Positions 1 through 45,010 of a stretch of DNA of 64,000 bases are shown piece after piece. The notes under the pieces were generated by a model. The model was given only the letters and a program-made list of their open reading frames with translations. It had not been told where the DNA came from and made no database searches. This stretch comes from a bacterium (GTDB lineage: Bacteria > Bacillota_I > Bacilli_A > RFN20 > CAG-288), in contig CAVKZJ010000003.1 of NCBI GenBank assembly GCA_963660905.1, forward strand, positions 42,160-106,159, read 5' to 3'. How positions within the stretch are numbered: the stretch's first letter is position 1; every line of letters begins with the position of its first letter. A program made the position numbers and the translations under genes.

Positions 1-7
1 AATCTGT

Positions 8-29992: not shown

Positions 29993-30011
29993 CAAATGAA
30001 TTTCAGATGGA

Positions 30012-31037
30012 TTATCTCTGAACTCTGCCGGAACCATTGCCGTTGGCAAGAGTTTCGACTTCATTCCAGGAGACAAGGTTGTAGTCGCCTTCGATGGAGT
30101 GCTTCAAGCAAGAGGCAGCAACAGCCAATTCGATAACCTGCTGATCATCATATCCCTTGAGGATAGCAGCAATCAAGCCGCCACCGAAGGAATCGCCGCC
30201 GCCGACTCTGTCGACGATGCGCATAGCATATTTCTTGGAAGTATAGAACTTTCCATCGCTATAGAGCATGGCAGACCAATTGTTGTCAGAAGCAGAGAGA
30301 GATTCTCTCAAAGTGATGGCAACCTTCTTGAAACCGAATTTGCTGACAAGCTGATTGCAGACATCTTCATAACCTTTGGCAGAAAGCTTGCCGGTGTTGA
30401 TGTCGGTATCTGTTGCCTTGATTCCGAAGACATCGGAGGCATCTTCTTCATTGGCGATGCAGACATCGACATATTTGCAGACTTCAGTCATGACCTTGTT
30501 GGCCTGTTCCTTGCTCCAGAGCTTCTTACGGAAGTTGAGGTCAGTGGAAACGGTCAAACCGAGCTTCTTTGCAGCCTTGACAGCTTCGATGGTGATTTCA
30601 GCCATATTTTCAGAGATGGCTGGTGTGATACCCGTGACATGGAACCATGTGGCACCGGCAAAGATCTTTTCCCAATCGAAGTCGGATGGCTTGGCTTCGG
30701 AAATAGCGGAATGAGCTCTGTCATAGATGACCTTGCTTGGACGCTGGGAAGCACCCTTTTCGCAATAATAGATACCGACCTTGTCACCACCACGAACGAT
30801 GAGGGAAGTGTCAACACCGAATTTTCTCAAGGAATTGACGGCAGCCTGACCGATTTCATGGCTAGGAAGCTTTGTGACGAAAGCAGCATCGATGCCATAG
30901 TTGGCCAAAGAGACGGCAACATTGGCTTCGGCACCACCATAGGTGGCTTCCATCGTATCGGACTGGACAAAACGGAGATAGCCCATCGGGGCAAGGCGAA
31001 GCATGACTTCACCGAACGTAATGACTTTCTGAGACAT
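30012..31037 (-). CDS. kdgK: 2-dehydro-3-deoxygluconokinase (PfkB family sugar kinase)
   Basis: PfkB N-terminal motif (GGAEANVAVSLA) and C-terminal GGGDSFGGGL motif; adjacent to eda. Confidence 0.85.
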   Translation of the reverse strand: MSQKVITFGEVMLRLAPMGYLRFVQSDTMEATYGGAEANVAVSLANYGIDAAFVTKLPSHEIGQAAVNSLRKFGVDTSLIVRGGDKVGIYYCEKGASQRPSKVIYDRAHSAISEAKPSDFDWEKIFAGATWFHVTGITPAISENMAEITIEAVKAAKKLGLTVSTDLNFRKKLWSKEQANKVMTEVCKYVDVCIANEEDASDVFGIKATDTDINTGKLSAKGYEDVCNQLVSKFGFKKVAITLRESLSASDNNWSAMLYSDGKFYTSKKYAMRIVDRVGGGDSFGGGLIAAILKGYDDQQVIELAVAASCLKHSIEGDYNLVSWNEVETLANGNGSGRVQR

Positions 31038-31062
31038 TGTTTTCTTTTTCCTTTTCTATTTA

Positions 31063-31710
31063 TTACTTCGAATACTGAGCACGAGCCTTCTTGACTTCAT
31101 CGACAAAGGCTTTGGCGTTGTCGATGATCTTTTCATATTCACCGGTCTTGGCTGGAGCAGTCAAGGAAGAACCGGCAGAGACAGCGACAGCACCGAACTT
31201 GATCCAGTCATTGATGTTTTCAAGGGAAACACCGCCGGAAGGAAGAAGCTTGGCCTTCGGGAACGGTCCATGGACATCCTTGAAGTAGCTCGGCTTGCAG
31301 ACGGAGCCAGGGAAGACTTTGACAACCTTGACACCCTTCTTCATTGCATTGTAGATTTCGGTTGGAGTGAAGCAGCCAGCGAAATATGGAATATCCACAG
31401 ATTTGCAGAATTCATTGACGCCATCATCAAAGCAAGGAGAAACGATGAACTTGGCACCTTTGGAATAAGCCAATTTTGCGGTTTCTTCATTTAAGACAGT
31501 TCCGGCACCGACAACAGCATCGACCTTGTCAGCAACCAACTTTTCGATGACTTTGTCTGCATCGGGAACAGTGAAGGTGATTTCCAAACCTTTGATACCA
31601 CCTTTGGCAGCATAGCTGGCCATTTTGACGGCCTCGTCAACAGAATTGGCTCTGATGACAGCTAAGACGCCGGAATCGACAATCGCCTGAATGATTTCAT
31701 CTGAATTCAT
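31063..31710 (-). CDS. eda: 2-keto-3-deoxy-6-phosphogluconate / 4-hydroxy-2-oxoglutarate aldolase
   Basis: 215 aa; class I KDPG aldolase motifs (GLEITFT, KVFPG); AAAGAGG RBS. Confidence 0.85.
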   Translation of the reverse strand: MNSDEIIQAIVDSGVLAVIRANSVDEAVKMASYAAKGGIKGLEITFTVPDADKVIEKLVADKVDAVVGAGTVLNEETAKLAYSKGAKFIVSPCFDDGVNEFCKSVDIPYFAGCFTPTEIYNAMKKGVKVVKVFPGSVCKPSYFKDVHGPFPKAKLLPSGGVSLENINDWIKFGAVAVSAGSSLTAPAKTGEYEKIIDNAKAFVDEVKKARAQYSK

Positions 31711-31887
31711 AGTACTTACCTCTTTTCATATGAATCTGACATCTTCTATAACTTGTATACAAGATATCTCCTAAGTTCAAGTATAGCCCTTTCACTATAA
31801 ATAGTAAAGTCTCTTTTTACTTCTTTGTTCTTTTGTAACAAAAAAAATCTTGCAATAGATTATTTGTATACAAATAAGTCATTCTAT

Positions 31888-32661
31888 CTATTTGTCATCT
31901 GAAGGGGAAATTCCGATGACTTTCAGATATTGTCTATAGAAAGTGGAATAGTCATTGAAGTTGAGTCTTTCACAGACATCCTGAGGCTTGGCTCCTCCCT
32001 GGATCAGAGAGTGAGCGTGTATAATCTTTTTCGAGCGAATATATTTCATGATTGGGATATGCATCTCTTTTTTGAAGCAATTCGAGATATACGATTCCGA
32101 ATAGGAAAGATCCTGGCTCATTTTGGTTAGGCTGAGATTGTCCTCAAGATGCAATTCGATATAGTTCGTGATCTTGGAGATGACGGAGAGCTCGCGGTTG
32201 CTATCCAGTGCCTGCTTGGTGTTGTCTAATAGGGCAAGCAGTTCCCAAAGCTTGGCTATCGCCATGACATACATATCTTCATCCGTCATCTGATTGTAGT
32301 AGTTGTCCAAGGATTTGAAGATGCTGACTTCCTCTGAGGTCAGATGGAAGAAAGGTGCCTTGGTATGGAACTTGAGGCGAATGGGCTCCGGAAAAAGATT
32401 TTCAGGGAATTTCAGGACATAGCGTTCATAGAGAATCGTTTTGTTGACTTCGGCAAAGTGGAATTTTCCCGGCTGGATGAGGATGCAGTCCCCGGAACGG
32501 AGTTTTCTCACCTCACCTTCCACGTTGTATTTCGCATCTCCGGAGACGAAATAAAGAATCTCAAAGAAGGGATGCATATGCTTTCCATATTCATCCTTGG
32601 GGGAGGAGGCATGGTCGAGTTTGTGACTGAAATCGAGGCTCCGGTATGTGAAATTGAACAT
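31888..32661 (-). CDS. AraC-family transcriptional regulator with N-terminal cupin sensor domain
   Basis: C-terminal AraC HTH signature; N-terminal cupin; sits between kdgK-eda and the divergent uxuAB genes. Confidence 0.8.
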   Translation of the reverse strand: MFNFTYRSLDFSHKLDHASSPKDEYGKHMHPFFEILYFVSGDAKYNVEGEVRKLRSGDCILIQPGKFHFAEVNKTILYERYVLKFPENLFPEPIRLKFHTKAPFFHLTSEEVSIFKSLDNYYNQMTDEDMYVMAIAKLWELLALLDNTKQALDSNRELSVISKITNYIELHLEDNLSLTKMSQDLSYSESYISNCFKKEMHIPIMKYIRSKKIIHAHSLIQGGAKPQDVCERLNFNDYSTFYRQYLKVIGISPSDDK

Positions 32662-32770
32662 ATGAGATTATTATAGGAGATTATTTCATTTTTTGCAAAC
32701 TATCAAACATAAAATTGCAATGGTAAGAATGACAGCGCTTTACTAAAATAGGTGCAAAGGAGAAAAACAT

Positions 32771-33814
32771 ATGAAACTGTCTTTTCGATGGTATGGCTTA
32801 AACGATTCCATCCCGCTTACCTATATCAAGCAGATACCGAATATGTATTCTGTCGTCACGTCCGTTTACGATAAGAAACCAGGTGAAGTCTGGGATAAGG
32901 AAAGCCTTCTTGCCTTGAAGGAACATAGTGCAAAACATGGTCTTGCCATGGAAGTCATCGAGTCCATTCCAGTCAGCGAAGACATCAAGATGGGTTCCGC
33001 AAAAAGAGATGAACACATCGCCGCCTTCCGCAAGAACCTCGCCTTATGTGGTGAAGTCGGAGTCAAATGCGTCTGCTATAATTTCATGCCGGTCTTCGAT
33101 TGGCTGAGAACCAACATGCATCATCAAAATCCGGATTATTCGAATTCCCTTAGCTATTCCGCTGATGATTTTGCCAAGGTTGATCCGAATCATCTTCATC
33201 TTCCCGGATGGGATGAATCCTATTCTCCGGATGAATTGCAGAACCTTTTGCATATCTATCAGGGAATCAGCCATGAGGAATACTTCAAGAACTTAGTTTA
33301 TTTCCTCAATTCCATCATGGATGTCTGCGATCAGTACGATATCAATATGGCCATCCATCCGGATGATCCGCCGTGGGATATCTTCTCTCTTCCGAGAATC
33401 GTCTCCAACGAAAAGAATCTCGATAGCATGTTCGCCGCAGTCCCGAATAAGCACAACGGCTTGACTCTCTGCACAGGATCATTTGGTGCCGGAAGAAAGA
33501 ATGATGTTCCGCACATGGCTGAAAAATATGCCAAGGAAGGAAGAATCTATTTTGCTCATCTCCGCAACGTCCTGTACACGGATGATAAGGATTCCTTCGT
33601 GGAAGTCGGACATTATTCCAATGCGGGTTCATTGGATATGTTCAAGATCGTCAAGAATCTTGTCGACAATGGTTTTGATGGCTATGTGAGACCAGATCAT
33701 GGAAGAAATATCTTTGGCGAAGAAGAAAAGCCAGGATATGGACTTTATGACCGTGCCCTTGGCTGTGCCTACATCAATGGCCTATTCGAAGCTGCTGAAA
33801 AAATGAAGAAATAA
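32771..33814 (+). CDS. uxuA: mannonate dehydratase
   Basis: N-terminal M.LSFRWYG...D motif characteristic of UxuA; 347 aa; GGAGA RBS. Confidence 0.85.
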   Translation: MKLSFRWYGLNDSIPLTYIKQIPNMYSVVTSVYDKKPGEVWDKESLLALKEHSAKHGLAMEVIESIPVSEDIKMGSAKRDEHIAAFRKNLALCGEVGVKCVCYNFMPVFDWLRTNMHHQNPDYSNSLSYSADDFAKVDPNHLHLPGWDESYSPDELQNLLHIYQGISHEEYFKNLVYFLNSIMDVCDQYDINMAIHPDDPPWDIFSLPRIVSNEKNLDSMFAAVPNKHNGLTLCTGSFGAGRKNDVPHMAEKYAKEGRIYFAHLRNVLYTDDKDSFVEVGHYSNAGSLDMFKIVKNLVDNGFDGYVRPDHGRNIFGEEEKPGYGLYDRALGCAYINGLFEAAEKMKK

Positions 33815-33833
33815 AAAAAGAGGAATCAAGAAA

Positions 33834-34688
33834 ATGAAAGTCAATGAATTGCCGTTTGCCACCAATCTGAAGGATAAGGTGGCAGTCATCACCGGTGCCG
33901 GTGGTGTTCTCTGCTCCTTGATGGGCAAGGCCTTAGCCTGCTGTGGTGCCAAAGTCGCCATCATGGATCTTCACCTCACCTCCGCTCAGAAAGTCGTCGA
34001 TGAGATTGTTGCCGAAGGCTATGTTGCCAAGGCCTATGAAGCAAACTGCCTCGACAAGAATTCTCTTCTTGCTGCCCATGCCGCAATCCTGAAGGATCTC
34101 GGAAAGTGCGATATCCTCATCAATGGTGCCGGAGGAAATTCGCCGAAGGCTTCCACAACCCAGGAATTCTATGCTCCGAAGGTCGATGAAGACACCATCA
34201 CCTTCTTCGACTTGAAGGAAGAAGGATTCGAATTCGTCTTCAACCTCAACATCATGGCGACCTTGGTCACGACTCAGATCTTCGCTGCCGATATGATCGG
34301 CCGTGAAGGATGCTCGATCCTCAACATCTCTTCCATGAATGCCTTCACTCCGCTGACCAAGATTCCAGCTTACTCCTCTGCCAAAGCCGGTGTCTCCAAT
34401 TTTACTAAGTGGTTGGCCACCTATTTCGCAAAGGAAGGCATTCGCGTCAATGCCATCGCTCCTGGATTCTTTGCCACCAAGCAGAATCAGGCTCTTCTCT
34501 TCAATCCCGATGGCACGCCAACGGCGAGAACCGGAAAGATTCTCAACAATACCCCGATGGGAAGATTCGGTACACCGGAAGAACTTCTCGGCGCTGTCCT
34601 GTTCCTTACTGATAGCAAGGCTGCCAGCTTCGTCACCGGTGTCGTTCTCCCGATCGATGGTGGCTTCTCTGCCTATTCTGGTGTCTAA
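33834..34688 (+). CDS. uxuB: SDR-family oxidoreductase, likely D-mannonate/fructuronate oxidoreductase
   Basis: TGAGGVLC Rossmann motif, YSSAK active-site motif; position immediately downstream of uxuA. Confidence 0.75.
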   Translation: MKVNELPFATNLKDKVAVITGAGGVLCSLMGKALACCGAKVAIMDLHLTSAQKVVDEIVAEGYVAKAYEANCLDKNSLLAAHAAILKDLGKCDILINGAGGNSPKASTTQEFYAPKVDEDTITFFDLKEEGFEFVFNLNIMATLVTTQIFAADMIGREGCSILNISSMNAFTPLTKIPAYSSAKAGVSNFTKWLATYFAKEGIRVNAIAPGFFATKQNQALLFNPDGTPTARTGKILNNTPMGRFGTPEELLGAVLFLTDSKAASFVTGVVLPIDGGFSAYSGV

Positions 34689-34711
34689 TCCGATTCGATT
34701 TTGATTCAATG

Positions 34712-34756
34712 TGCCTAGACTTTCCTTTTTGGAAGGCCTAGGTTTTTTTCTTTGAA
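34712..34756 (+). terminator. hairpin terminator after uxuB
   Basis: GCCTAGACTTTCC-ttttt-GGAAGGCCTAGG followed by TTTTTTT. Confidence 0.45.
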
Positions 34757-34760
34757 AAGT

Positions 34761-34790
34761 CTTTTAGCAATCCTAATGAAAACGTATAAT
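34761..34790 (+). promoter_or_regulatory. candidate promoter of the McrBC-like island (TTAGCA ... TATAAT)
   Basis: Perfect -10 hexamer TATAAT at 34785-34790; the -35-like hexamer sits at sub-optimal 15-nt spacing. Confidence 0.3.
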
Positions 34791-34817
34791 GAAAGGAAAT
34801 CAAAAGGAGGTATTCAA

Positions 34818-35222
34818 ATGGCCTATTATCTACAGCAGAGTGGGCAAAATCTTGTCGTCGCTAAAGAAATTATGGTTCTTTTCTCGACCGATCGAGTTGA
34901 GATCGTCAATTTAGGAAAGAACACAAAGGATACAAGATCATTCCCAAATAAAATCTATGATATTGTCTATCAGCCTGAATTGAAATCGGATCTATATGAA
35001 TTGAGAGTCTATCTGTTCGAAACATATATTCCCATCGATCGAGTGTATTTCAATGTGGAGAATCTGATGAAGACAAAAGAAGAGCTTCCCCCGCAGACAA
35101 AAAGAAAGATTATGGAAGTGAAGAAGGAAGTGAAAATCAAAACGACGAAAACAAAAGTGGAATCCTTAAAGAATGAGTTCCAGGAAAAGGTAAAGGAGAT
35201 TGTGAAAAATGTACTTGAATAA
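34818..35222 (+). CDS. hypothetical protein (134 aa), first gene of McrBC-like island
   Basis: Start at MAYYLQ chosen for its AAAAGGAGG RBS; no recognisable domain; Lys/Glu-rich C-terminus; its stop overlaps the next gene's start. Confidence 0.5.
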   Translation: MAYYLQQSGQNLVVAKEIMVLFSTDRVEIVNLGKNTKDTRSFPNKIYDIVYQPELKSDLYELRVYLFETYIPIDRVYFNVENLMKTKEELPPQTKRKIMEVKKEVKIKTTKTKVESLKNEFQEKVKEIVKNVLE

Positions 35223-36132
35223 AGAAAATCTGTCATCCATGAGTGAAGCGGAAATTGAGAGACTATGTACGATTGCGAGCGTTGAAAGACTGAAAAACAT
35301 CCTGATTGATTATTATGGAGATGAATCAACTAGAAGAAAGCATTACGGAAAAGGATCGAAAGAGTGGAATAATAAAGACAAAAAAAATCCGCCAGCCTCC
35401 TTTGTGAAGAGTTTCTTTGTGTTTCTCTTCACCAAGGAAGAGAATGTTCCTGAAAAATATTATCAGCTGTTCGAAGAGAAACTTTTGAAGACGATTGTCG
35501 GGAAGGAAAAATATCAGAATGCCTCTGCGGAGATGATCCATTCTTCTATCGATGAGGATGAGAAATATAGCCAGAGAGACTATAAGGCGATTCTCTATAA
35601 GGCTTTTGGTTTTGAGTTGGAAAAGGAAGAAGACCTCCCTGTAGAGGAAGCCGACGAAGAGGAAGAAAAGGAAGAAGTGAAAACCAAATTCTCCTTGCCT
35701 AAGATTTCCAAGAAGGATGATGTGGAGACAAGAATCAATCAAGCTGTCAGCAAGCAGGCCAAGGAAGACAAGAAAAACTACGATGACCTGAAGAAGAAAT
35801 ATGACGCATCGGAAAACAAGCTCAAAAAAGCTCAAGAGGATCTTTCTGTTCTGAAGAATTCCTACTCCACGCTGAAAAAAGAACGCGATGGATTCGAAAA
35901 AAAGAATGCGGAGAATGAGGAAAAATTATCTTCCATCCTGAAAAAACTGAATACTCTATCGAAAAGAAAGATGGCTGATCTTGATAAAAATACGCTTTTG
36001 GTTGAGCAGAGCAATGCCGTGGAAATTCTTCAGCTGGCCATCGATGAATTGAAGAAATCCCATTATTCTCTCTCGATGGATCAGATTGTGAAGGCCTATG
36101 TGATTTTAGGTCTTCTTGAGAAGGGAGAATGA
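35209..36132 (+). CDS. coiled-coil protein (307 aa), function unknown
   Basis: Globular N-terminal domain, acidic linker (EEADEEEEKEE), long heptad-like Lys/Glu-rich segment; 14-nt overlap with the upstream gene and ATGA overlap with the downstream gene. Confidence 0.55.
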   Translation: MYLNKENLSSMSEAEIERLCTIASVERLKNILIDYYGDESTRRKHYGKGSKEWNNKDKKNPPASFVKSFFVFLFTKEENVPEKYYQLFEEKLLKTIVGKEKYQNASAEMIHSSIDEDEKYSQRDYKAILYKAFGFELEKEEDLPVEEADEEEEKEEVKTKFSLPKISKKDDVETRINQAVSKQAKEDKKNYDDLKKKYDASENKLKKAQEDLSVLKNSYSTLKKERDGFEKKNAENEEKLSSILKKLNTLSKRKMADLDKNTLLVEQSNAVEILQLAIDELKKSHYSLSMDQIVKAYVILGLLEKGE

Positions 36133-38087
36133 GAATGGAACAGGAAATGGATTTTAGCGGACTGAGCGAGAAATTCGACGAGGTTTCTGATCATGTCGTT
36201 TTGGCTGTTCTCTATAAGACCTTCATGATGCAAAGTCAGAACCATTGCTATTTGCAATGTGCACTTCTTCCGATTTCGGATGAACCGGATATTCTTCTAG
36301 AGAATGAATCGGTTTTCTGGAGCAAAGCCATGATTGATGGGAAATCCTGCTATACTGTCACAGGTGACAACCTTTTGCAGTATCTTGGCAAATGGGATGG
36401 ATATTCTTCTGAATCCGAGGAGGATGTGAGAAGACAAGAGGAAATCATTGTCGAAGCGATGAAGGAGAAAATGCTTCTTTTCACTCCGTATTACAAATAT
36501 GATGAGAGAAAGAATATTTTCTACAAAAATGTCGATTCCAATGAGGACGTCTTGACTCTTCCGCTTCATTATCTCAATGAAAGCTACTTTGTTGTCCCGA
36601 TTCTCAATGAACAGAATTTCAGACTGTTTTTGGCCCACAAAACCTTCTCTCTTTCCAATTGGAATCTGAGTCTCTTTGGAAAACCGAAATATATTCTCTA
36701 TGGAAACCACCTTATTCTTGCTCCTTTAACGACAAGCGAGAACTCGGATTACAACTGCCAATGGGAAAAGAAAGATAAGGATTATCTTGATCTCGAGTTC
36801 GACTTCGATGATTTCGTCTCTAACGGTTTCCTTTACTATGAAAATGGATCGGGATACTGCTTCTTGGAAAAGGCAAGCCTTCCTCTCATGAGGAAAATGC
36901 AGTCCCTTCCTTTCCAAGACGATGATTCACAGGATGAGATGGAGAAAATCGTCCAGCCTTCCGATCAGTATGATACAAGAAAAGCCTTACTCGGCTTTGA
37001 GTCCTATCTGAAAAGCAAGAATCTCTACTATTATGATGACGATGTCAAGAATTTTCATGCCTGTCTGAAATGCCGGCTTCTGACGATTCTTGCTGGCATG
37101 TCGGGAACGGGAAAGACACGTCTTCCCTTGGAATATGCAAACTACTTCAACATGACAGAGGAGAACGGCACGCTTCTTTTTGTTCCGATTTCGCCAAGCT
37201 ATACGGAGCCGAGCGATATGCTCGGATTCTATAATCCGGCCAATGAAAACTATATGTCCAGTGAGACGGGCTTGGTTAGTTTTCTTAAGCATGCCTCAGA
37301 AAATCCTGACAAGATGCATATGGTGGTTTTCGATGAGATGAATCTTGCACAGATCGAATATTATTTTGCTCCCTTCCTTTCGATATTGGAAAGAGAAAAA
37401 GACCGTCGGATTCTTCGACTCTACGACCAAAACCTGGAATGCAAGAATAAGGAACTCTATCCCGATTCCATCAAAATCGGAGACAATGTCCTTTTTGTCG
37501 GAACCATCAATCTTGATGATACGACAAAAGAGCTTTCCGAAAGACTTCTTGACCGTTCATTTGTGATTTCCTTGCGCCGTGCTTCGTTTGATAAATACAA
37601 TGGCGTCATGCTCGATAGGGCAGAAGAAAACGGAAAGATCTATGAAGGGGAATTGATGTCCTTGATGCCAAAGATGGCAAAGACGTTCAACTTCAACTCC
37701 TTTCTGACTCCGACGATGCGAGAATTCTTCGATGAATTCAATCGTCTCCTCTCGGAGAAGGACCCACAGAAAGGCATCTCCTTCAGAACTGTTCGCAACA
37801 TCTCTCTCTATCTTGCCAATTCGAGAATGGAGGAAGACGGTCTACTCGATGACATCGGGGCAAAACAGGCTTTTGACTTTGTTTTCCGTCAGACGGTTTT
37901 AAGAAGAATCCGAGGAAGTGACGAGATTTTGAGCGAAGTGCTTGGATGTCGTACGGAAGATGGTAAAATTCATTCTCCAATCTATGATCTGCTTGAGAAA
38001 TATGGCGAGATATCCTCGTTTGAGCTTTCCAAGCAGGAAATCGCCAATAAAATACTTGAATTGAAGCGGTATGGCTATGTCCGATAA
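36129..38087 (+). CDS. McrB-like AAA+ GTPase (AAA_5 type) with novel about 300-aa N-terminal domain
   Basis: Walker A GMSGTGKT, Walker B VVFDEMN, and McrB-signature GTINLDD...LDRSF (compare McrB GTMNxxD...RRF); the first 300 aa match nothing recognisable. Confidence 0.8.
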   Translation: MRMEQEMDFSGLSEKFDEVSDHVVLAVLYKTFMMQSQNHCYLQCALLPISDEPDILLENESVFWSKAMIDGKSCYTVTGDNLLQYLGKWDGYSSESEEDVRRQEEIIVEAMKEKMLLFTPYYKYDERKNIFYKNVDSNEDVLTLPLHYLNESYFVVPILNEQNFRLFLAHKTFSLSNWNLSLFGKPKYILYGNHLILAPLTTSENSDYNCQWEKKDKDYLDLEFDFDDFVSNGFLYYENGSGYCFLEKASLPLMRKMQSLPFQDDDSQDEMEKIVQPSDQYDTRKALLGFESYLKSKNLYYYDDDVKNFHACLKCRLLTILAGMSGTGKTRLPLEYANYFNMTEENGTLLFVPISPSYTEPSDMLGFYNPANENYMSSETGLVSFLKHASENPDKMHMVVFDEMNLAQIEYYFAPFLSILEREKDRRILRLYDQNLECKNKELYPDSIKIGDNVLFVGTINLDDTTKELSERLLDRSFVISLRRASFDKYNGVMLDRAEENGKIYEGELMSLMPKMAKTFNFNSFLTPTMREFFDEFNRLLSEKDPQKGISFRTVRNISLYLANSRMEEDGLLDDIGAKQAFDFVFRQTVLRRIRGSDEILSEVLGCRTEDGKIHSPIYDLLEKYGEISSFELSKQEIANKILELKRYGYVR

Positions 38088-39747
38088 ACTCTTCGTCACG
38101 ATAAATAAAGAGGAACCGATTGCCTTTGATCTTTTAAAGGAAAAGGAAAGAATCCTCTTTTCAATGAATGATACCTGCCACCTTCGTGTTTCTTTTCATA
38201 CGGATTCCAACGGCCGGTTTTCCATGCAGTGCTATCAGGCATTGAATGAAAAGAAGAACAAGAAAATCACGATTGAAAAAAACATCCTCCTCTTGGATAA
38301 GGATGTTACGTATTATGTTTCCGGAGGAAGCGAATATTATTACCTTCCGGGAGTCTATTGTCTTTACTATGAATGCACCACGGGCAAGAAGACATTCTAT
38401 TTTGAAGTGAAAAATAATTCTGTCTTGGGAAAGGATGGATTTGGAAACATCATCGTAAGACTCGAATCGATTCTTCAGAATATCACCCGTGAGCTTTCCA
38501 GGAAAGGCGATGTGGATTCTTCCGAGCAGTCCTATCCTCTTTTGGCACATCGATTGGAAGAAAATTTTCCTTCCTTCAAGGAACTTGAAAGAAGGATGCT
38601 TTCCTGTCTGAAGGAGGATGTGGTGACGGTCTATGGCTTTTTTTCCTCTGGAAGAGAAGACTACAAGACATTCAGGAGAAACGTCACGCATCCTTTTTCG
38701 GAAAAGATGACGAAGAAAAAAAGACTCTCCTATGATTCGAACGAAAACCGTTTTCTGAAGTATCGGATGAATGCCTTCAAAAGAAAGATATCTTCCCTTT
38801 TGAATTCCCTGAAGGAACAAGAGGTGAAAAATCATCTCTTGCAAAAGGAAGGGATGGAAAAACAGGAAGAGCTTACCAAAAAAAGAGAAGAGAATCTCTA
38901 TATGGATGCTCGGCTTTCCAAGGAAGACCTTGTTCTCCAAAAGAAACAGAATGAGCTGCGAGGAGAAGACAAAGTCATATCTGGCCTGATGGAAATTTTG
39001 ATGAGATACTATCGCATCTGCGGTTCCTTTCTGCAAGATGAAAGAATCAAGAAGGTCAGACTTCTCTCGACACCATCCTATTTATCTTCCTCGCCGATGG
39101 CAAAAGAAATCCGTGACATGCAAAAGAAGATTTTTCCAGATAAGGATAAAGTCTCCTATAAACCGGCTCGCGAACTGTTCGAACTCTATGGCTATTATCT
39201 GATCCACACGGCTTTGATGGAACTCGGCTATCAAAAAACAGACCAATCTCTTTCTGTCCTCAAGGAAAATGAAAGCTTTTTTGTCTATGAAAGTGAACAG
39301 AGGATGGTCAAGGTTCTCTATGGTCCCTTCTGTAAGGATTTCCTTACCAATAAAGAGATGGATTGCACGGTCAGCATCAATTCTCATCACCGATCGCCTG
39401 ATTTCATCATGGAAGTCTATGATTCAAACACAAATGTCTTCCTTTTCGATTTGGTTTTGGAAATCAAATATATCCCGATTTTCAAGTTTGAGGAAAAACC
39501 GGATCTGAAAAAGGATATTTTATTGACAGCGAGCGACTATCTCCAATTCGGCTTTGTCTCTTCAGAAGGATTGCGAGTCGGTGCCGTGAGAAAAGTGATG
39601 ATTCTTTTCCCATCATTGGAAGAGAAAATTGACGACTATCTTTCTTTCCATAAGATTTATCTCTTAGGCATCGACATGAATAAGGAGACCGATGAAAGCA
39701 TGGTCTATTCCTTCCTGAGAGAAGAATTAAGCAAAGAAAATGAATGA
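38071..39747 (+). CDS. McrC-like PD-(D/E)xK endonuclease with long N-terminal extension
   Basis: C-terminal PDF...D-x-EIK motif (SPDFIMEVYD...FLFDLVLEIKY) consistent with the McrC nuclease core; coiled-coil segment in the middle; 17-nt overlap with the McrB-like gene. Confidence 0.65.
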   Translation: MAMSDKLFVTINKEEPIAFDLLKEKERILFSMNDTCHLRVSFHTDSNGRFSMQCYQALNEKKNKKITIEKNILLLDKDVTYYVSGGSEYYYLPGVYCLYYECTTGKKTFYFEVKNNSVLGKDGFGNIIVRLESILQNITRELSRKGDVDSSEQSYPLLAHRLEENFPSFKELERRMLSCLKEDVVTVYGFFSSGREDYKTFRRNVTHPFSEKMTKKKRLSYDSNENRFLKYRMNAFKRKISSLLNSLKEQEVKNHLLQKEGMEKQEELTKKREENLYMDARLSKEDLVLQKKQNELRGEDKVISGLMEILMRYYRICGSFLQDERIKKVRLLSTPSYLSSSPMAKEIRDMQKKIFPDKDKVSYKPARELFELYGYYLIHTALMELGYQKTDQSLSVLKENESFFVYESEQRMVKVLYGPFCKDFLTNKEMDCTVSINSHHRSPDFIMEVYDSNTNVFLFDLVLEIKYIPIFKFEEKPDLKKDILLTASDYLQFGFVSSEGLRVGAVRKVMILFPSLEEKIDDYLSFHKIYLLGIDMNKETDESMVYSFLREELSKENE

Positions 39748-39910
39748 AAATGTTTTCACGAAGTTATGAAAATATTTTCAAAATAGGTTGTTTTTCCGAT
39801 TTGATGATGTGACTAGATTCTTGAAACCCCTTCCCATCATGAAATGTTTCTTTGAAAGATTTTTATACGTGATATAATTTTTTTTGTTCAGAATCCAAGG
39901 AGCTCTTCAA

Positions 39911-41140
39911 ATGAAAGAATTCGTTGCAAAAAGAAGTAGACAGGGCGTTTCCAAGACGGACATCATTGCAATCAACTCTCAGGCTTTGAAGGATGCAAAA
40001 GAAGGCAATAAGGTCATCAACGCATCCATCGGCACTTTCCTAGACGATGATAAGAAAGTCGGATCTGTTCCATTGATCAAGGAAGCTATAAAGGATCACA
40101 TCACGGATAACTTGGGTTATTCGGGAACTTCCGGTGTCGCCTCCTATCTGGATGGCGTGATGAAGTATGTTTTTGCTGACAAATTAGAGTCCGTTCAGTC
40201 TCTCTACACACCTTTTGTAGGCGGAACTCTTGGTGGCACGGGTGCGATTTCCATCGCTTTCAATCTCTTTTTGGAGGAAGGCGAAGCGGTTTTGCTTCCG
40301 GATGTCATGTGGACGAACTACAAACTGATTGCCAAGAAGGCACATGCTACTTACATGACGTATACGATGTTTGATGAAAAAGGTGGATTGAATCTTCCTT
40401 CCATCCGTAAGACGATTCAAGAGGCAAGAGAAAAATATCACCACGTGCTTTTGGTCATCAATGATCCCTGCCAGAATCCGACAGGATATTGCATGACGAA
40501 GGAAGAATATGATGAATTGTTTGTCATTCTCAATGAGGAAGGAAGAAAAGGATATCTGACTGTCTTATTCGATATCGCCTATATCTCCTTCTTCCATATC
40601 GATGGAAAAGAGTGCGGCCTGATTGAGAAACTCGCAGAAGGAAAATGCGATTTCCTTCCGCTTGTCTGCTTCTCCTGCTCGAAACTGTTTGGCCTTTATG
40701 GACTTCGTGTCGGCGCCTTGATTGTGCTTTGCCCGAATGAGGAGAATCAGATCGAAGTCAAAAGAGCGTTCGGTGCCATGGCAAGAGGAACCTATTCCGT
40801 TCCGAACGGTCCTGCCCAAATTGCCGTCAGCCAGGTTCTCAATGATCCTGAGAAAATCGCTGAACTGAATGCACAGGTCCAGAAGAATTCGGATATTCTT
40901 GCGGAAAGAAGCAAAATTCTGATGGAAGAACTTGAAAAAGCGGGAATCGAATATTATCCCTATAAGAGTGGTTTCTTCATCACCTTGAAGATCAAGGATG
41001 CATTCGAAGTCTCCAAGAAACTTGTCGCTTCCCATATGTATGTCGTTCCGATGAATGAGGACTCAATCCGTTTAGCCATATCCGGCATGACGAAAGAAGA
41101 AGTCGCTCTTCTCATCCAGGAAATCAAGAAAGTCCAATAA
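39911..41140 (+). CDS. class I/II pyridoxal-phosphate aminotransferase (aspartate/aromatic type)
   Basis: Start trimmed to MKEFVAK, which has an AAGGAG RBS; fold-type I aminotransferase with a conserved Lys region (SCSKLFGLYGLRVG). Confidence 0.85.
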   Translation: MKEFVAKRSRQGVSKTDIIAINSQALKDAKEGNKVINASIGTFLDDDKKVGSVPLIKEAIKDHITDNLGYSGTSGVASYLDGVMKYVFADKLESVQSLYTPFVGGTLGGTGAISIAFNLFLEEGEAVLLPDVMWTNYKLIAKKAHATYMTYTMFDEKGGLNLPSIRKTIQEAREKYHHVLLVINDPCQNPTGYCMTKEEYDELFVILNEEGRKGYLTVLFDIAYISFFHIDGKECGLIEKLAEGKCDFLPLVCFSCSKLFGLYGLRVGALIVLCPNEENQIEVKRAFGAMARGTYSVPNGPAQIAVSQVLNDPEKIAELNAQVQKNSDILAERSKILMEELEKAGIEYYPYKSGFFITLKIKDAFEVSKKLVASHMYVVPMNEDSIRLAISGMTKEEVALLIQEIKKVQ

Positions 41141-41144
41141 AAAA

Positions 41145-41185
41145 AGAAAACGATCGATCACATTGTGGGTCGGTCGTTTTTTAGA
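41145..41185 (+). terminator. rho-independent terminator after aminotransferase gene
   Basis: AAACGATCGATC...GGTCGGTCGTTTTTT imperfect hairpin followed by a T-run. Confidence 0.45.
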
Positions 41186-41207
41186 AGATAAATATGGCAA
41201 TGAGATG

Positions 41208-41567
41208 TTATTTATCGACGATTTCGATTTTGGAGACGTTATTGAGCTTTGGAGGATAGACAAGGGAAACCGTTCCGTCATAGGTGATCTTTAATTTGTC
41301 ACCTTCCTTGATATCCTCGAATTTTGCTTCTTGTCCGTTCTTGATCACCTTGGAAATGTCATTCTGCTCAAAGGTATAGAAATAATCTTCTGTGCCGGTA
41401 TCCGTAACATTCAGTCCCCAGAAGTTATTGACATTCTTGTAGGTTCCGGAAATGATGAATTCGTTGTTTTTTTCAATTTCCATTCCTTTGATGCCCTGAT
41501 TATCCTCATGGTATTTGGAGAAGTTGGACACTAAAGACAACGCGGCAAAAAGAAAATTTTTCTTCAT
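41208..41567 (-). CDS. small secreted protein, function unknown
   Basis: Start at MKKNFL has an AAGGAGAGG RBS at good spacing; signal peptide. Confidence 0.5.
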   Translation of the reverse strand: MKKNFLFAALSLVSNFSKYHEDNQGIKGMEIEKNNEFIISGTYKNVNNFWGLNVTDTGTEDYFYTFEQNDISKVIKNGQEAKFEDIKEGDKLKITYDGTVSLVYPPKLNNVSKIEIVDK

Positions 41568-41609
41568 GTTCATCCTCTCCTTTCCATTCGGTTTATTTAT
41601 TATAAAATA

Positions 41610-42539
41610 TTACACCCGTTTTGTGTAGTTGCTGAAAAATCTTTTTACATAGGGTGCGACTTTTTCATTTCCATAGAGGTTCTTCAGTCTTCCGAATACA
41701 GTATCGACGCTTCTTGAGGCTCCTTTTGGGATTTCCATATGGAAAACTTCTTCCATCTTTTTCCATTCGACTAAAAAGGTATATCGTGCAATGACGCTTG
41801 ATACCGCAACGGAAGGATAATAAGTTTCTCCTTTTGTTCTGAAATAGAGTGGATTTTTGATAATGTCATCGGCAACGTATTTCCGATAATTGTCTTCGGC
41901 AAGAAATTGGTCGACATAGGTGATGAGAAAATCAGGAAGACCATATTTTTCCATCAGTCCACGATGGGCGTGGTTATGTGCAATGGAAAGCGCTTTATCG
42001 ATATTGATGTGATTGTCATGGAGTTTGGAAAGCTTATCAGCGGAAATCAGGACGATATAGTTCTTGATTTTCTTTTTTAGGGCAGGTCCGATCTCTAGGA
42101 TGTAGTCATCATTCATTTTCTTGGAATCATTGATCTTCATCTTCTCTAAATAGGGGATATCTTCTTTTCCGACGTAGCTTGCAGTGACAATCAACGGACC
42201 AAAAAAATCACCTTTTCCGACTTCGTCTGATCCAATCTGAGGACCAAAGTCCTCCCATCCTTCGATGATATTATGGGATTTTGTCTCTTTTGGCTCAGTT
42301 TTCTTGATCGTAAAATCCTTAGAAAAAATACTGACAAGTTCTCTTGTCTTTTCTTCCTCTCCTGAAAAAGAGATGGTATAGATTTCTTTTTTGTTTTTAT
42401 AGGCATGGATATGGACGCCCTGATAGGTTGTATCGAAATAGTCATAAGGATGCTTTTCGTCAGAGATTTCGCTTGCTTGAAGGAAATCCTTGATTTCGCT
42501 GGCCTTGGCCAAGTCTGTCTTGATGGTTATGTAAGTCAT
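41610..42539 (-). CDS. rnhC: ribonuclease HIII
   Basis: 309 aa; N-terminal extra domain plus RNase HII-fold core with a DEVGKGDFFGPL catalytic motif. Confidence 0.8.
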   Translation of the reverse strand: MTYITIKTDLAKASEIKDFLQASEISDEKHPYDYFDTTYQGVHIHAYKNKKEIYTISFSGEEEKTRELVSIFSKDFTIKKTEPKETKSHNIIEGWEDFGPQIGSDEVGKGDFFGPLIVTASYVGKEDIPYLEKMKINDSKKMNDDYILEIGPALKKKIKNYIVLISADKLSKLHDNHINIDKALSIAHNHAHRGLMEKYGLPDFLITYVDQFLAEDNYRKYVADDIIKNPLYFRTKGETYYPSVAVSSVIARYTFLVEWKKMEEVFHMEIPKGASRSVDTVFGRLKNLYGNEKVAPYVKRFFSNYTKRV

Positions 42540-42658
42540 AGGAATATTATAAAGGATTTCCTATGTGGATAGAAAACTCTTTCTCATTCCAGAAAGGGAC
42601 AAAATCTCCTTCCAGTGCGATATAATACCTATTATGCATAGAAAATGAGAATGAGAAT

Positions 42659-45010
42659 ATGGAAGAAAATTATTTGAACCACGAAGTGGATGAAGTCATC
42701 GAAAAACTGAAAGGTTTCTTTTCTCTTCAGGGGATGAAGAAAAACTTCAGCCGTGAAAGATATCTTGCGACCTCGAAGGATGATATCCTTCTTTCCCATG
42801 AATATCTGGACGAGTTTTCTCGGCTTCTTCATGATGGAAATGAAATCAATATTCCTTCCCTTCTTGATTTTGAGCCGATTTTCATCTCTCTTGAGAAACA
42901 GTCGGTTCTCTCCTGCGCGGAGTTGAATTCCATAGCGGATCTTCTTTCTGCAAGCGAAGGACTTTATGATCTTCTTTATGACAAGAAGCAATATTTTCAT
43001 CTGAATGATGATGCATTGGATCTCAATCCTCTTGTCCAGCTAAAAAGAGACTTGGTGAATTGCATCGAACCGGATCTGACTGTTTCGGATAATGCAAGTG
43101 CTCCGCTTCGCGATTGCCGAAGTGCTTTGCGAAGCATCCGAAGACAACTTTCGAATATCATGAATTCGTATAAAAACCGCTATAGCGCCTATCTCTCGAG
43201 CGATAGCATCGCCTTAAGAGACAATCAGGAAGTCCTGGCAGTCCGAACATCGGACAAAGGGTTTGTCAAAGGAAGTGTGATTTCCTATTCCTCGACGGGA
43301 GAAACGGTCTTCATGGTTCCCTATGAGGCATTGGAACTGAGGAACAAGGAATCGAGTCTTGTTCAGGAAGAGGCCACCGAGGTGATGAAGGTTCTCTCCG
43401 ATCTTTCCTTGAAGGCCTACAAGCAGATCAAATATCTCAAAAGGGATTATGAGATCATCCTGAACTTTGACCGCTACCTCGGGGCTGTCCGGTTTGGCGC
43501 ATCCTATAATGGATGCATTTCTGAGATGACCGAGAATGAATTCTCTTTGAAGGAACTTTTCCATCCTCTTCTTAAGGCAAAAAACGTCGTCAAGAATAGT
43601 ATTTCCCTAGGCGGAAAGGAACCAAAGGTTCTTCTGATCACCGGACCCAATGCCGGTGGAAAATCCATTTTCATCAAGGCCTGTGCCTTGACTGTCATGA
43701 TGGATAAGCTTGGCTTGATGGCTCCTTGCATGTATGAATGCAAGATCCCCTATATCGATGAAGTCTATTTCCTTGGCGGAGACAATCAGTCAGTGATGGA
43801 CAATCTCTCCACTTTCTCGAGTCACCTTTTGGGAATCAAGAATATCACGACATCCGCAACGAAGAATTCCCTTGTCATCATCGATGAAGTCGGTGAGGGA
43901 ACATCTCCGAAAGATGGGGAAGCGCTCGGCGTCGGGCTTCTTCGCTTCTTTGAGAAAAAAGGTTGTTTGACCATGCTGACATCCCATTTCGATGGATTGA
44001 AGATTTATGCAGCAAATGATGAGAAATGCCTCACGGGGGCCATGGAATTCAATACGACTGGGCTCAAGCCGACGTATCGTCTTCTTCTTCATACGACAGG
44101 AAAATCCTATGGTATCCTTTTGGCAAGACAGATGGGACTGGATGAGGAAATTCTTTCTGATGCCATCGATTTCCAGAATCAGAGAAGCAATAAGGATACC
44201 GATGCCTTGATGGAGAAGCTCACCCAGCAGGTGATGGACAATGAGAAGAAGGCAAGAGAACTCGACAATGCCAAAAAGGATCTCGAGAAGCTCGCGGAAA
44301 AAAGACAGAAGGCGATTGACGCTCTCAATGAGGAAAGAAATTCCATCAAGATGAAGGCGGAAAATAAAATCAATCGTCTTGTCGATGAAAGAATCGAAGA
44401 AATCAATCGCATCTGGAAACAGGAATCGAATAAGAAGGATTCTTCCATGAACTATTCGGATGTCTCTCAGAAGAAAGGACAGCTCAATAAGATCAAGGAA
44501 GAAAAATCGCCGAGTCTTTCTCCTTTGGGGAAAAGCGAAGCCCTCAAGGATATCAAGGTGGGCGACCTTCTTTTGGATGAAGACAAAAGGCAGGGAAAAG
44601 TTCTCGAAGTCAAAAAGAATGAAGTCCTTCTGGATATGTCCGGTCTCCGCATCCGAAGAAAGATTCAGGGGCTCACTCGAGCCAAGCTCACAGCCTTGGA
44701 TGTCAAGACGAAGAAGACGCCAACTGCCTTGATTGACCAGACCATATTGAATATCGGCTCATCCCAGGGGTTGGAACTCAACATCATCGGCCAGCATGTC
44801 GACGAAGCCATGCGAAACGTGGTGTCTTTCCTCGATTCGGCACGGATCCGTAAATTCTCCTGTGTGCGCATCATCCATGGAACAGGAACATTCGCCTTGA
44901 AGAATGCTCTTTGGAAATATCTTTCCAATCATAAGGAATTTGTCAAGGATTACCAATTCGGAAATGAAGGGGAAGGCGGGCTTGGTGCGACCGTTATTCA
45001 TTTGAAATAG
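42659..45010 (+). CDS. mutS2: endonuclease MutS2 (MutS-family ATPase with C-terminal Smr domain)
   Basis: Walker A LITGPNAGGKS; C-terminal Smr motif (IIGQHVDEAM...IIHGTGT). Confidence 0.9.
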   Translation: MEENYLNHEVDEVIEKLKGFFSLQGMKKNFSRERYLATSKDDILLSHEYLDEFSRLLHDGNEINIPSLLDFEPIFISLEKQSVLSCAELNSIADLLSASEGLYDLLYDKKQYFHLNDDALDLNPLVQLKRDLVNCIEPDLTVSDNASAPLRDCRSALRSIRRQLSNIMNSYKNRYSAYLSSDSIALRDNQEVLAVRTSDKGFVKGSVISYSSTGETVFMVPYEALELRNKESSLVQEEATEVMKVLSDLSLKAYKQIKYLKRDYEIILNFDRYLGAVRFGASYNGCISEMTENEFSLKELFHPLLKAKNVVKNSISLGGKEPKVLLITGPNAGGKSIFIKACALTVMMDKLGLMAPCMYECKIPYIDEVYFLGGDNQSVMDNLSTFSSHLLGIKNITTSATKNSLVIIDEVGEGTSPKDGEALGVGLLRFFEKKGCLTMLTSHFDGLKIYAANDEKCLTGAMEFNTTGLKPTYRLLLHTTGKSYGILLARQMGLDEEILSDAIDFQNQRSNKDTDALMEKLTQQVMDNEKKARELDNAKKDLEKLAEKRQKAIDALNEERNSIKMKAENKINRLVDERIEEINRIWKQESNKKDSSMNYSDVSQKKGQLNKIKEEKSPSLSPLGKSEALKDIKVGDLLLDEDKRQGKVLEVKKNEVLLDMSGLRIRRKIQGLTRAKLTALDVKTKKTPTALIDQTILNIGSSQGLELNIIGQHVDEAMRNVVSFLDSARIRKFSCVRIIHGTGTFALKNALWKYLSNHKEFVKDYQFGNEGEGGLGATVIHLK

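Follow-up and report, generated by a model that had tools for sequence, protein, structure and literature searches.

The N-terminal domain (NTD) of an McrB-like GTPase from a gut member of the Bacillota is, with a probability of about 0.65, the target-selection domain of a CnuB-type protein in a four-gene cassette resembling the Type I-B CoCoNuT systems. The gene lies in the window, the whole stretch of 64,000 nucleotides of DNA that was analysed. Few restriction systems are as common as the relatives of McrBC, whose N-terminal domains decide the targets. The NTD is a genuine domain, confined to this protein family, and by profile comparison it is an unusual member of the described CoCoNuT-type class and not a new kind. 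Its role is most likely the selection of a target, and it is probably a module that binds RNA or single-stranded DNA. The features of the cassette are collected in Table 1.

Table 1. Features of the cassette, with positions in the window
Feature	Position	Strand	Remarks
Terminator-like hairpin between upstream SDR gene and g1	34720..34736	+	5' edge of cassette
g1, small accessory ORF	34818..35222	+	134 aa from ATG 34818
g2, CnuA-like protein	35209..36132	+	307 aa; overlaps g1 and GTPase gene
CnuB/McrB-like GTPase gene	36129..38087	+	652 aa
NTD, residues 1-255	36129..36893	+	conserved in 59 full-length homologues
N-terminal module of NTD, residues ~20-112	36186..36464	+	DSSP of model
C-terminal beta-rich module of NTD, residues ~113-255	36465..36893	+	
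Acidic, poorly conserved linker, residues 256-284	36894..36980	+	gap-rich variable columns; pLDDT falls at model end
GTPase (AAA+) module with C-terminal helical part	36981..38084	+	
Walker A, GMSGTGKT, residues 323-330	37095-37118	+	
Walker B, FDEMN, residues 401-405	37329-37343	+	
NxD signature, N461-L-D463	37509-37517	+	
CnuC/McrC-like partner	38071..39747	+	558 aa; 17 nt overlap with GTPase gene
DUF2357, residues 212-291 of McrC-like protein	38704-38943	+	Pfam E 2.5e-6
PD-(D/E)xK nuclease, E371	39181-39183	+	McrC-like protein
PD-(D/E)xK nuclease, P443-D444...E464-x-K466	39397-39468	+	McrC-like protein

The GTPase and the extent of its N-terminal domain

The translation of the GTPase reading frame opens MRMEQEMDF. 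Translation probably begins at the second ATG, position 36135, because M3 is nearly invariant and an identical protein present in the database (P0001) is the resulting 650 aa long. A preliminary description of this DNA had called the protein an McrB-like GTPase, and this is borne out by the Walker A and B motifs, a Pfam AAA_5 match (residues 320-476, E 1.1e-7) and the match of residues 312-488 to the E. coli McrB structures 6hz4, 6ut6 and 7vsr (E 1.5e-5 to 3.7e-5). The NCBIfam McrB model also matches with E 3.3e-5, at a score of 22.8 that is far under its cut-off of 637, and the PADLOC model PDC-M26A does so with E 3.6e-41, confined to the GTPase part. As judged by alignment, the protein belongs to the McrB family and resembles CoCoNuT CnuB more closely than it does E. 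coli McrB. In BLASTP, Type I-A CnuB proteins show 28-36% identity (E ~1e-22 to 1e-24) and E. coli McrB shows 23% (E 7e-9), and the sequence INLDD aligns with MNTAD of E. coli McrB, placing NxD where the canonical signature is NxxD.

An exhaustive profile search among 1.84 billion representatives detected the NTD in 90 clusters (50% identity), of which 73 have E<=1e-10. With few exceptions it forms the N-terminal part of McrB-like proteins of 600-700 aa. The AF2 model of the domain has a pLDDT of 93.2 and a pTM of 0.89. Conservation across the 90 clusters and the confident AF2 fold establish it as a true domain, and a chance ORF sequence is ruled out. The preliminary description had given it 300 residues, and the model and alignment reduce the folded part to ~255 aa, since residues 285-318 are conserved together with the GTPase module throughout the family. 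Its reading frame and opening peptide were correct; the peptide NFHACLKCRLL, with which it closed the region, is residues 308-318, beyond position 37030 (residue ~300) where the region was said to end. Its remark that the region is rich in Tyr, Asp and Glu and carries several Cys holds, with 7.0% Y, 8.3% D, 8.7% E and five Cys (40, 44, 74, 210 and 244). A Cys metal site is ruled out, since none of the five Cys (0/5) lies in a conserved column.

The same description found no assignable motif, and searches with residues 1-262 agree, giving no match in Pfam, NCBIfam, PADLOC or PHROGs. A profile search of the NTD against PDB sequences yielded noise alone, and no conserved 7-mer exists within the domain. 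Models of CSD, YTH, EVE, ASCH, SRA and DUF3578 do not match any of 42 family members even at E<=1, and a standard DUF3578 or EVE domain, looked for both by sequence and with Foldseek, was not detected in the region, as the description had supposed. With no database model for the NTD, annotation pipelines call such genes only "AAA family ATPase". A word-index search with the NTD alone was blank although the database contains an identical protein; this is a limitation of the tool, and the domain is not an orphan. With a median pairwise identity of 20%, compared to 56% for the GTPase core, the NTD evolves as a specificity module does, ~2.5 times faster than the GTPase.

Predicted fold and charge of the N-terminal domain

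In the AF2 model the first ~110 residues of the NTD look OB-fold-like. The order of elements in residues ~20-90 (strand-strand-strand-helix-strand-strand) is that of an OB-like module, and a long helix (97-110) follows. This part carries a conserved motif, P-[IV]-S-D-E-P (residues 48-53), of which S50, E52 and P53 are conserved. In the C-terminal module the conserved positions are K114, P120, K133-N134, P157, W178, P186, Y188 and F245. Candidate ligand-contact residues are S50, E52, K114, K133, N134, W178 and Y188.

Foldseek matches to the NTD model among PDB and viral structures are at the top, almost without exception, OB-fold binders of single-stranded DNA or RNA. For example, they include LEF-3, Teb1, RPA70, an editosome OB protein, hSSB1 (5d8f) and DUF669 phage proteins, the last with probability up to 1.00 and E 2e-3. 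The best E values are 2e-2 (PDB) and 2e-3 (viral) with TM-scores of 0.2-0.5, none statistically strong. The OB-fold matches vanish once residues 1-92 are removed. Residues 93-262, modelled separately, fold with a pLDDT of 91.9, and a Foldseek search of the PDB with them gave no match (best E 1.1); the cut at 93 probably also splits the OB-like module. A YTH-like fold in the NTD was not reproduced by Foldseek.

The net charge of the NTD is -19 in this protein, and the mean is -12 in its branch and -8.4 in the group of three-gene systems described below. The mean is -9 for residues 1-112, so the negative charge sits mainly in the OB-like half. Conserved basic positions are few, with K114 and K133 alone reaching 80%. 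An OB fold that binds nucleic acid would not usually be so acidic; acidity is, however, a property of the whole protein, and the GTPase part has a net charge of -9.

The four-gene cassette and its surroundings

The cassette consists of g1, g2, the GTPase gene and an McrC homologue, four overlapping genes in ~5 kb. For g1 the mechanical ORF begins at TTG 34752 (156 aa), and the RBS AAAGGAGG is found 7 nt upstream of ATG 34818. This small protein has no family match in Pfam, PADLOC, NCBIfam or PHROGs, and its homologues are limited to close relatives (7 loci). In distant four-gene loci this place is taken by an ORF of 104-181 aa that overlaps the gene after it, and between sub-branches these ORFs have no detectable sequence similarity.

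The g2 protein begins with a helical N-terminal part and an acidic stretch; a coiled-coil region (~165-255), charged and heptad-like, comes next, and a tail of ~50 aa ends the protein. Its profile matches are weak and of coil type (LmuB and TrlF, E 0.05). In 24 loci jackhmmer detects g2 homologues upstream of the GTPase gene, among them a 434 aa protein of Brevibacillus (L059). Proteins of the g2 family have 261-331 aa, compared to 415-460 aa for the upstream proteins of three-gene loci, and hhalign aligns the two weakly (prob 46%, N-terminal residues 8-58 only). A REC domain is absent on grounds of sequence and length: there is no Response_reg match in g2, and the ~50 residues after the coil are too short. 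That g1 and g2 are a split CnuA is ruled out by the hhalign probability of 0.1% for g1 against the 415-460 aa proteins. In P0074/L019 the GTPase is joined directly to a g2-like region, which takes the place of the NTD; this natural fusion argues for a functional link between g2 and the GTPase.

A homologue of the McrC-like protein is found directly downstream of the GTPase in almost all loci examined. Its predicted nuclease is intact, with E371, P443, D444 and K466 invariant in 73 McrC-like sequences, and ~210 residues precede DUF2357. PDB sequence searches with g1, g2 and the McrC-like protein gave no match. Many genome loci share the four-gene layout, as do the loci of homologues that are 38% and 34% identical.

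In the window the cassette lies between hexuronate-catabolism genes and an aminotransferase, outside any defence island, and a 90%-identical locus (L009) keeps these neighbours. Elsewhere the distribution is patchy and the neighbourhoods vary; one homologue adjoins AIPR, a SLFN-like helicase, MazG and HipA, and another adjoins a Fic protein. A phage origin was considered and rejected, with just 7 viral contigs holding distant relatives that match the GTPase only. The cassette is also not the PDC-M26 system of PADLOC, because the A model alone matches, on the GTPase part only; the same holds for the relatives in Brevibacillus, Paenibacillus and Bacillus.

Proposed target selection and relation to known systems

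A shortened NxD signature is the hallmark of the CoCoNuT branch within McrBC (Bell et al., eLife 2024, PMC11090510). This branch has been described by computation only and is predicted to target RNA. No experimental test of any CoCoNuT was found in the literature searched. The Type I-B form is made up of CnuA, CnuB (CSD-YTH-McrB) and CnuC (IG-McrC_N-PD-DxK), in which CnuA is a separate coiled-coil protein with an N-terminal PYD/CARD-like domain and a C-terminal REC domain (PMC11090510). Type I-B and Pseudo-Type I-B have been described mainly in Bacillota (PMC11090510). The relatives of the cassette show three layouts that agree with this description: the A-B-C order in Bacillota, B-C without A in Bacillus, and in some a coil fused to B.

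The preliminary description had treated the NTD as unrecognisable, standing in place of known modules, and had missed the four-gene operon, whose overlapping ORFs can be seen in the window. The domain is instead homologous to the NTDs of NxD-clade McrB proteins in three-gene A-B-C systems of Clostridium, Paenibacillus and Brevibacillus. In hmmsearch it matches these Bacillota systems with E 1e-18 to 1e-28, and hhalign aligns the two NTDs over 222 columns (columns 12-256) with prob 99.6% and E 7.9e-25, at an identity of ~17%. With the two-gene form of Bacillus/Gottfriedia the homology is weaker, and the alignment covers residues 95-218 (prob 92%, E 7e-7). The three-gene loci fit the published Type I-B, the two being equated by architecture and taxonomy and not by accession numbers.

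Going by E. coli McrBC and by Bell et al. 2024, the GTPase would form GTP-bound hexamers that display six NTDs. The trigger that these bind would most likely be RNA or single-stranded nucleic acid, which may be modified. The McrC homologue would then insert its DUF2357 stalk into the hexamer, stimulating GTP hydrolysis, after which the PD-(D/E)xK domain would cleave the nucleic acid. The coiled-coil g2 may serve as scaffold or regulator.

Could the NTD instead be a wholly new target-recognition module, unrelated to OB/CSD, to YTH/EVE or to any described McrB NTD? The absence of sequence-model matches in all 42 members, the small number of clusters and the well-modelled residues 93-262 that resemble nothing in the PDB speak for this, and it is nevertheless unlikely. 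An equally unlikely reading is that the domain binds protein or is regulatory, sensing a basic phage protein or docking g1 or g2 with the OB-like barrel as interaction surface. The strong, conserved negative charge of residues 1-112 and the scarcity of conserved basic positions are consistent with it, as are the hypervariable small ORF and the coiled-coil protein always just upstream, and the replacement of the NTD by a g2-like region in P0074/L019. However, every characterised McrB N-terminal domain binds nucleic acid (PMC11090510), the nearest fold matches are binders of ssDNA or RNA, and the acidity extends beyond the NTD.

A composite of such ideas is possible, if doubtful: jointly, the four-gene branch of gut Bacilli would be a CoCoNuT subtype in its own right, the last ~140 residues of the NTD would form a module that is not a YTH/EVE reader and whose fold lacks any solved relative, and the acidic NTD with g1 would sense something other than modified nucleic acid, e.g., a phage protein. 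Very improbable is a role of the cassette in stress response or housekeeping RNA surveillance and not in antiviral restriction. Such a role has been proposed for Pseudo-Type I-B in Bacillus (PMC11090510), and the metabolic neighbours of the cassette here and in L009, with no defence island, would suit it. The patchy distribution and variable neighbourhoods, the intact nuclease motifs, the match of the GTPase part to a PADLOC defence-candidate model and the fast divergence of the NTD, typical of arms-race modules, all argue in the other direction. Under the preferred reading, with the NTD as target selector, the locus is a compact example from gut Bacillota (~5 kb, four genes, intact nuclease motifs and a confidently modelled putative sensor domain) that could be used for testing what CoCoNuT-type systems recognise.

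Several known systems can be compared with the cassette. In structure the NTD comes nearest, if only weakly, to the OB-fold binders of single-stranded nucleic acid (RPA70, hSSB1/SOSS-B1, phage DUF669, baculovirus LEF-3 and S1/cold-shock proteins). In contrast to these, the NTD lacks sequence similarity and RNP-type motifs, has an acidic surface composition, and has its OB-like part fused to a second beta-rich module of ~140 aa with no structural neighbour. With Type I-B CoCoNuT the cassette has in common the NxD GTPase signature, a putative separate coiled-coil protein just upstream (g2, with its charged heptad-like region), directly downstream an McrC homologue that has DUF2357 and an intact PD-(D/E)xK, Bacillota hosts, and an NTD of ~255-290 aa that is interpretable by structure-based methods only. 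CnuB of Type I-B has no fused coiled coil, and likewise here the NTD is followed by a 29-aa acidic linker and then the GTPase, with no long helix in the model. The cassette differs in having four genes and not three, the extra one being the hypervariable g1, and in the shorter g2 family, which leaves no space for a C-terminal REC domain. The Pseudo-Type I-B of Bacillus (CnuB and CnuC only) has a related GTPase and McrC homologue and a partly alignable NTD, whereas it has no upstream coiled-coil gene and the N-terminal OB-like part of the NTD is unaligned. McrBC of E. coli K-12, a Type IV restriction enzyme, shares the Walker A/B AAA+ GTPase followed in one operon by a partner with DUF2357 and PD-(D/E)xK, and the union of a modular N-terminal specificity domain with a motor. 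Unlike it, the cassette has NxD and not NxxD, an NTD that is not DUF3578/ADAM, a GTPase at 23% identity and two extra upstream genes.

The GTPase gene and its N-terminal domain

The C-terminal half of the protein is a McrB-type AAA+ GTPase, as the preliminary description had it: Pfam AAA_5 matches residues 320-476 (E 1.1e-7), E. coli McrB structures (6hz4/6ut6/7vsr) match residues 312-488 (E 1.5e-5 to 3.7e-5), and Walker A (GMSGTGKT, residues 323-330) and Walker B (FDEMN, residues 401-405) motifs are present. Two in-frame ATGs occur at the start of the gene, at 36129 and 36135. The second, which is better spaced from a GGGAG RBS, encodes the near-invariant Met of the family and begins the identical database protein P0001 (650 aa), is probably the true start codon.

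A real N-terminal domain (NTD) precedes the GTPase. It had been described as 300 aa long, ending at NFHACLKCRLL (residues 308-318); the folded part stops near residue 255, and the quoted end lies in the GTPase module. The composition is as reported, rich in Tyr (7.0%), Asp (8.3%) and Glu (8.7%) with five Cys, none of them conserved in the family alignment. The absence of an assignable motif was also borne out. Residues 1 to ~260 have no match in Pfam, NCBIfam, PADLOC or PHROGs, and a profile of 42 homologous NTDs has no meaningful match among PDB sequences. Even with a cut-off of E<=1, none of the 42 matches CSD, YTH, EVE, ASCH, SRA or DUF3578; EVE and DUF3578 are the two domains that the preliminary description had named as evidence against its claim. 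No sequence-family library covered by the searches contains a model for the NTD.

Features of the cassette (nucleotide positions in the window; residues of the GTPase protein)
Feature	Position	Strand	Remarks
Terminator-like hairpin	upstream of g1
g1, small ORF	34818-35222 (probable)	+	134 aa; strong RBS AAAGGAGG at 34803-34810 before ATG 34818
g2, coiled-coil protein	35209-36132	+	307 aa; charged coiled-coil-like region
McrB-like GTPase gene	36129-38087	+	652 aa; translation begins MRMEQEMDF
Folded NTD	residues ~1-255	+	alignment and AlphaFold2 model
Acidic variable linker	residues 256-284	+	alignment and model
Start of conserved GTPase module	residues 285-318	+	alignment and model
McrC-like gene	38071-39747	+	558 aa; McrC N-terminal domain DUF2357, E 2.5e-6

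Relatives of the domain and gene layouts

A full-length search finds 660 relatives of the GTPase protein, more than 100 of which are 32-60% identical to the query over 93-100% of its length. The full-length query also recovers the 100% identical protein by word-index search. With the NTD alone as query the same kind of search returns nothing, though that protein is in the database, so a word-index search that comes back empty for a divergent domain is no sign of orphan status. Searched exhaustively with HMMER, 1.84 billion representative proteins yield just 90 clusters that match the NTD profile, nearly all of them proteins of 600-700 aa that carry the domain N-terminally. The domain is therefore uncommon and tied to this GTPase. 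Conserved positions in the alignment include a P-[IV]-S-D-E-P motif at 48-53, P120, K133-N134, P157, W178, Y188 and F245. In pairwise comparisons the median identity is 20% for NTDs versus 56% for GTPase cores. The NTD evolves far more quickly than the motor, as would be expected of a specificity module.

The four genes of the window overlap or abut on one strand. The mechanical ORF for g1 begins at TTG 34752 (34752-35222); from ATG 34818 the product is as long as its homologue in locus L010. The PD-(D/E)xK site of the McrC-like protein is intact, with E371, P443-D444 and K466 invariant across 73 homologues. The layout is repeated around two homologues, 38% and 34% identical, and AIPR, a SLFN-like helicase, MazG and HipA adjoin one of them. 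In the window, the cassette has genes of hexuronate catabolism (KDG kinase, KDPG aldolase, AraC-type regulator, UxuA, SDR) on one side and aminotransferase, RNase HIII and MutS2 genes on the other, a neighbourhood (30000-45000) that is not a defence island. GC is 0.395 at 38-40 kb (the McrC-like gene) versus about 0.42-0.46 in adjacent windows. A 90% identical locus, L009, shares the upstream neighbours. This Bacillota-type cassette also occurs on contigs assigned to bins of Bacteroides uniformis, Alistipes onderdonkii, Bacteroidales and Sodaliphilus (L010, with a protein 86% identical to that of the window, L013, L066, L079); either these MAG contigs are mis-binned or the cassette was transferred recently.

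Taking a single genome for each species, a scan yielded 80 loci, which show three layouts. Gut Bacilli, Erysipelotrichaceae and Acholeplasmatales MAGs have the four-gene form, in which ORFs of 104-181 aa and 261-331 aa precede the GTPase and McrC-like genes. In Clostridium, Paenibacillus, Brevibacillus and many Bacillaceae there is a three-gene form, its upstream protein being 415-460 aa long, and in Bacillus and Gottfriedia a two-gene form (GTPase and McrC-like only). This reproduces the published Type I-B / Pseudo-Type I-B picture of CoCoNuTs (coiled-coil nuclease tandems, in which CnuA, CnuB and CnuC are the coiled-coil protein, McrB GTPase and McrC homologue). In the three-gene group, the NTD profile matches the N-terminal regions (E 1e-18 to 1e-28). 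Profile-profile comparison with that group gives 99.6% probability (E 7.9e-25, 222 columns, residues 12-256), with an S-x-E-P motif inside the alignment; the match to the two-gene Bacillus form is weaker (92%, E 7e-7, residues 95-218). By this 99.6% match the NTD is assigned to the Type I-B-like CnuB NTD family as a divergent member (~17% identity), the three-gene loci being typed on architecture and taxonomy and not on accession numbers. The domain therefore does not stand "in place of" known modules, as had been proposed.

Predicted fold and candidate target

The AlphaFold2 model of the NTD, built from its alignment (pLDDT 93.2, pTM 0.89), is largely beta and includes a few helices. Foldseek finds no significant match for it in the PDB (best E 0.02-0.7) or among viral predicted structures (E from 2e-3, probability up to 1.00). 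The best of these non-significant matches are, almost without exception, OB-fold proteins that bind single-stranded nucleic acid: baculovirus LEF-3, Teb1, RPA70, editosome OB proteins, hSSB1 (5d8f), bacterial SSBs and phage DUF669 proteins. Residues ~20-90 are modelled as strand-strand-strand-helix-strand-strand, the order of an OB fold. A separate model of residues 93-262 (pLDDT 91.9) has no PDB neighbour in Foldseek (best E 1.1), so the OB-like signal depends on the first ~92 residues, and the beta-rich module of ~140 residues that follows is not identifiable by Foldseek.

Both the OB-like module and the CSD/YTH reading in the literature suggest, as the candidate target, RNA or another single-stranded nucleic acid, which may be modified. 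By analogy with E. coli McrBC, and following Bell et al., the GTPase would form GTP-dependent hexamers, the McrC homologue would stimulate hydrolysis through its DUF2357 stalk and cleave with its PD-(D/E)xK nuclease, and six NTDs would select the target. The main argument against a nucleic-acid ligand is charge. The NTD is strongly acidic (net -19 in the window protein; mean -12 over the 42 homologues of its branch and -8.4 in the three-gene group), unexpectedly so for a domain presumed to bind nucleic acid with an OB fold, and few basic positions are conserved. A protein-sensing or regulatory module is for these reasons a serious rival, although the rest of the GTPase protein is likewise acidic, which weakens the charge argument against nucleic-acid recognition.

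Comparison with published CoCoNuTs

The literature already contains both this kind of system and a structural interpretation of the homologous NTD. Type I-B, mainly from Bacillota, has a separate CnuA (PYD/CARD-coil-REC), a CnuB of CSD-YTH-McrB without fused coil and a CnuC of IG-McrC_N-PD-DxK, and Pseudo-Type I-B of Bacillus is without CnuA (Bell et al. 2024, PMC11090510). No experimental test of any CoCoNuT was found in the literature searched.

The architectural twist worth noting is the four-gene form, with its short CnuA-like protein and hypervariable small ORF. Compared with Type I-B CnuA, the coiled-coil protein of this branch is shorter; the ~50 residues beyond the coil are too few for a REC domain. 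It is weakly similar to the 415-460 aa proteins of the three-gene form: jackhmmer ties g2 to the Brevibacillus upstream protein, and hhalign aligns the N-terminal 50 residues with a probability of 46%. No counterpart of g1 was found within those proteins. In L001-L008 and L017-L030 the g1-position ORF is conserved in place, size (104-181 aa) and overlap with the coiled-coil gene, with no detectable sequence similarity between sub-branches; it is either hypervariable or repeatedly recruited.

Natural fusions support a physical coupling of coiled-coil protein and GTPase. In P0074 and L019:6296-8098 (Acholeplasmatales MAG), a 600-aa protein joins g2-like residues 1-253 directly to the GTPase, without the NTD. 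Others (P0168, P0187, P0189; L033, L043, L045; 840-925 aa) carry a helical/coiled-coil extension of ~270-370 aa before NTD and GTPase. The coil-fused CnuB of other CoCoNuT types is similar, except that in these variants the coil lies N-terminal to the sensor domain.

The MNTAD (NxxD) of E. coli McrB aligns with INLDD in the window GTPase, giving an NxD motif (N461-L-D463); this deletion marks a large McrB branch that includes CoCoNuTs (Bell et al. 2024, PMC11090510). The window GTPase is 28-36% identical to Type I-A CnuB sequences of the Bell et al. supplement (E ~1e-22 to 1e-24) and more distant from E. coli McrB (23%, E 7e-9). The cassette is rated a divergent member of this published kind of system.
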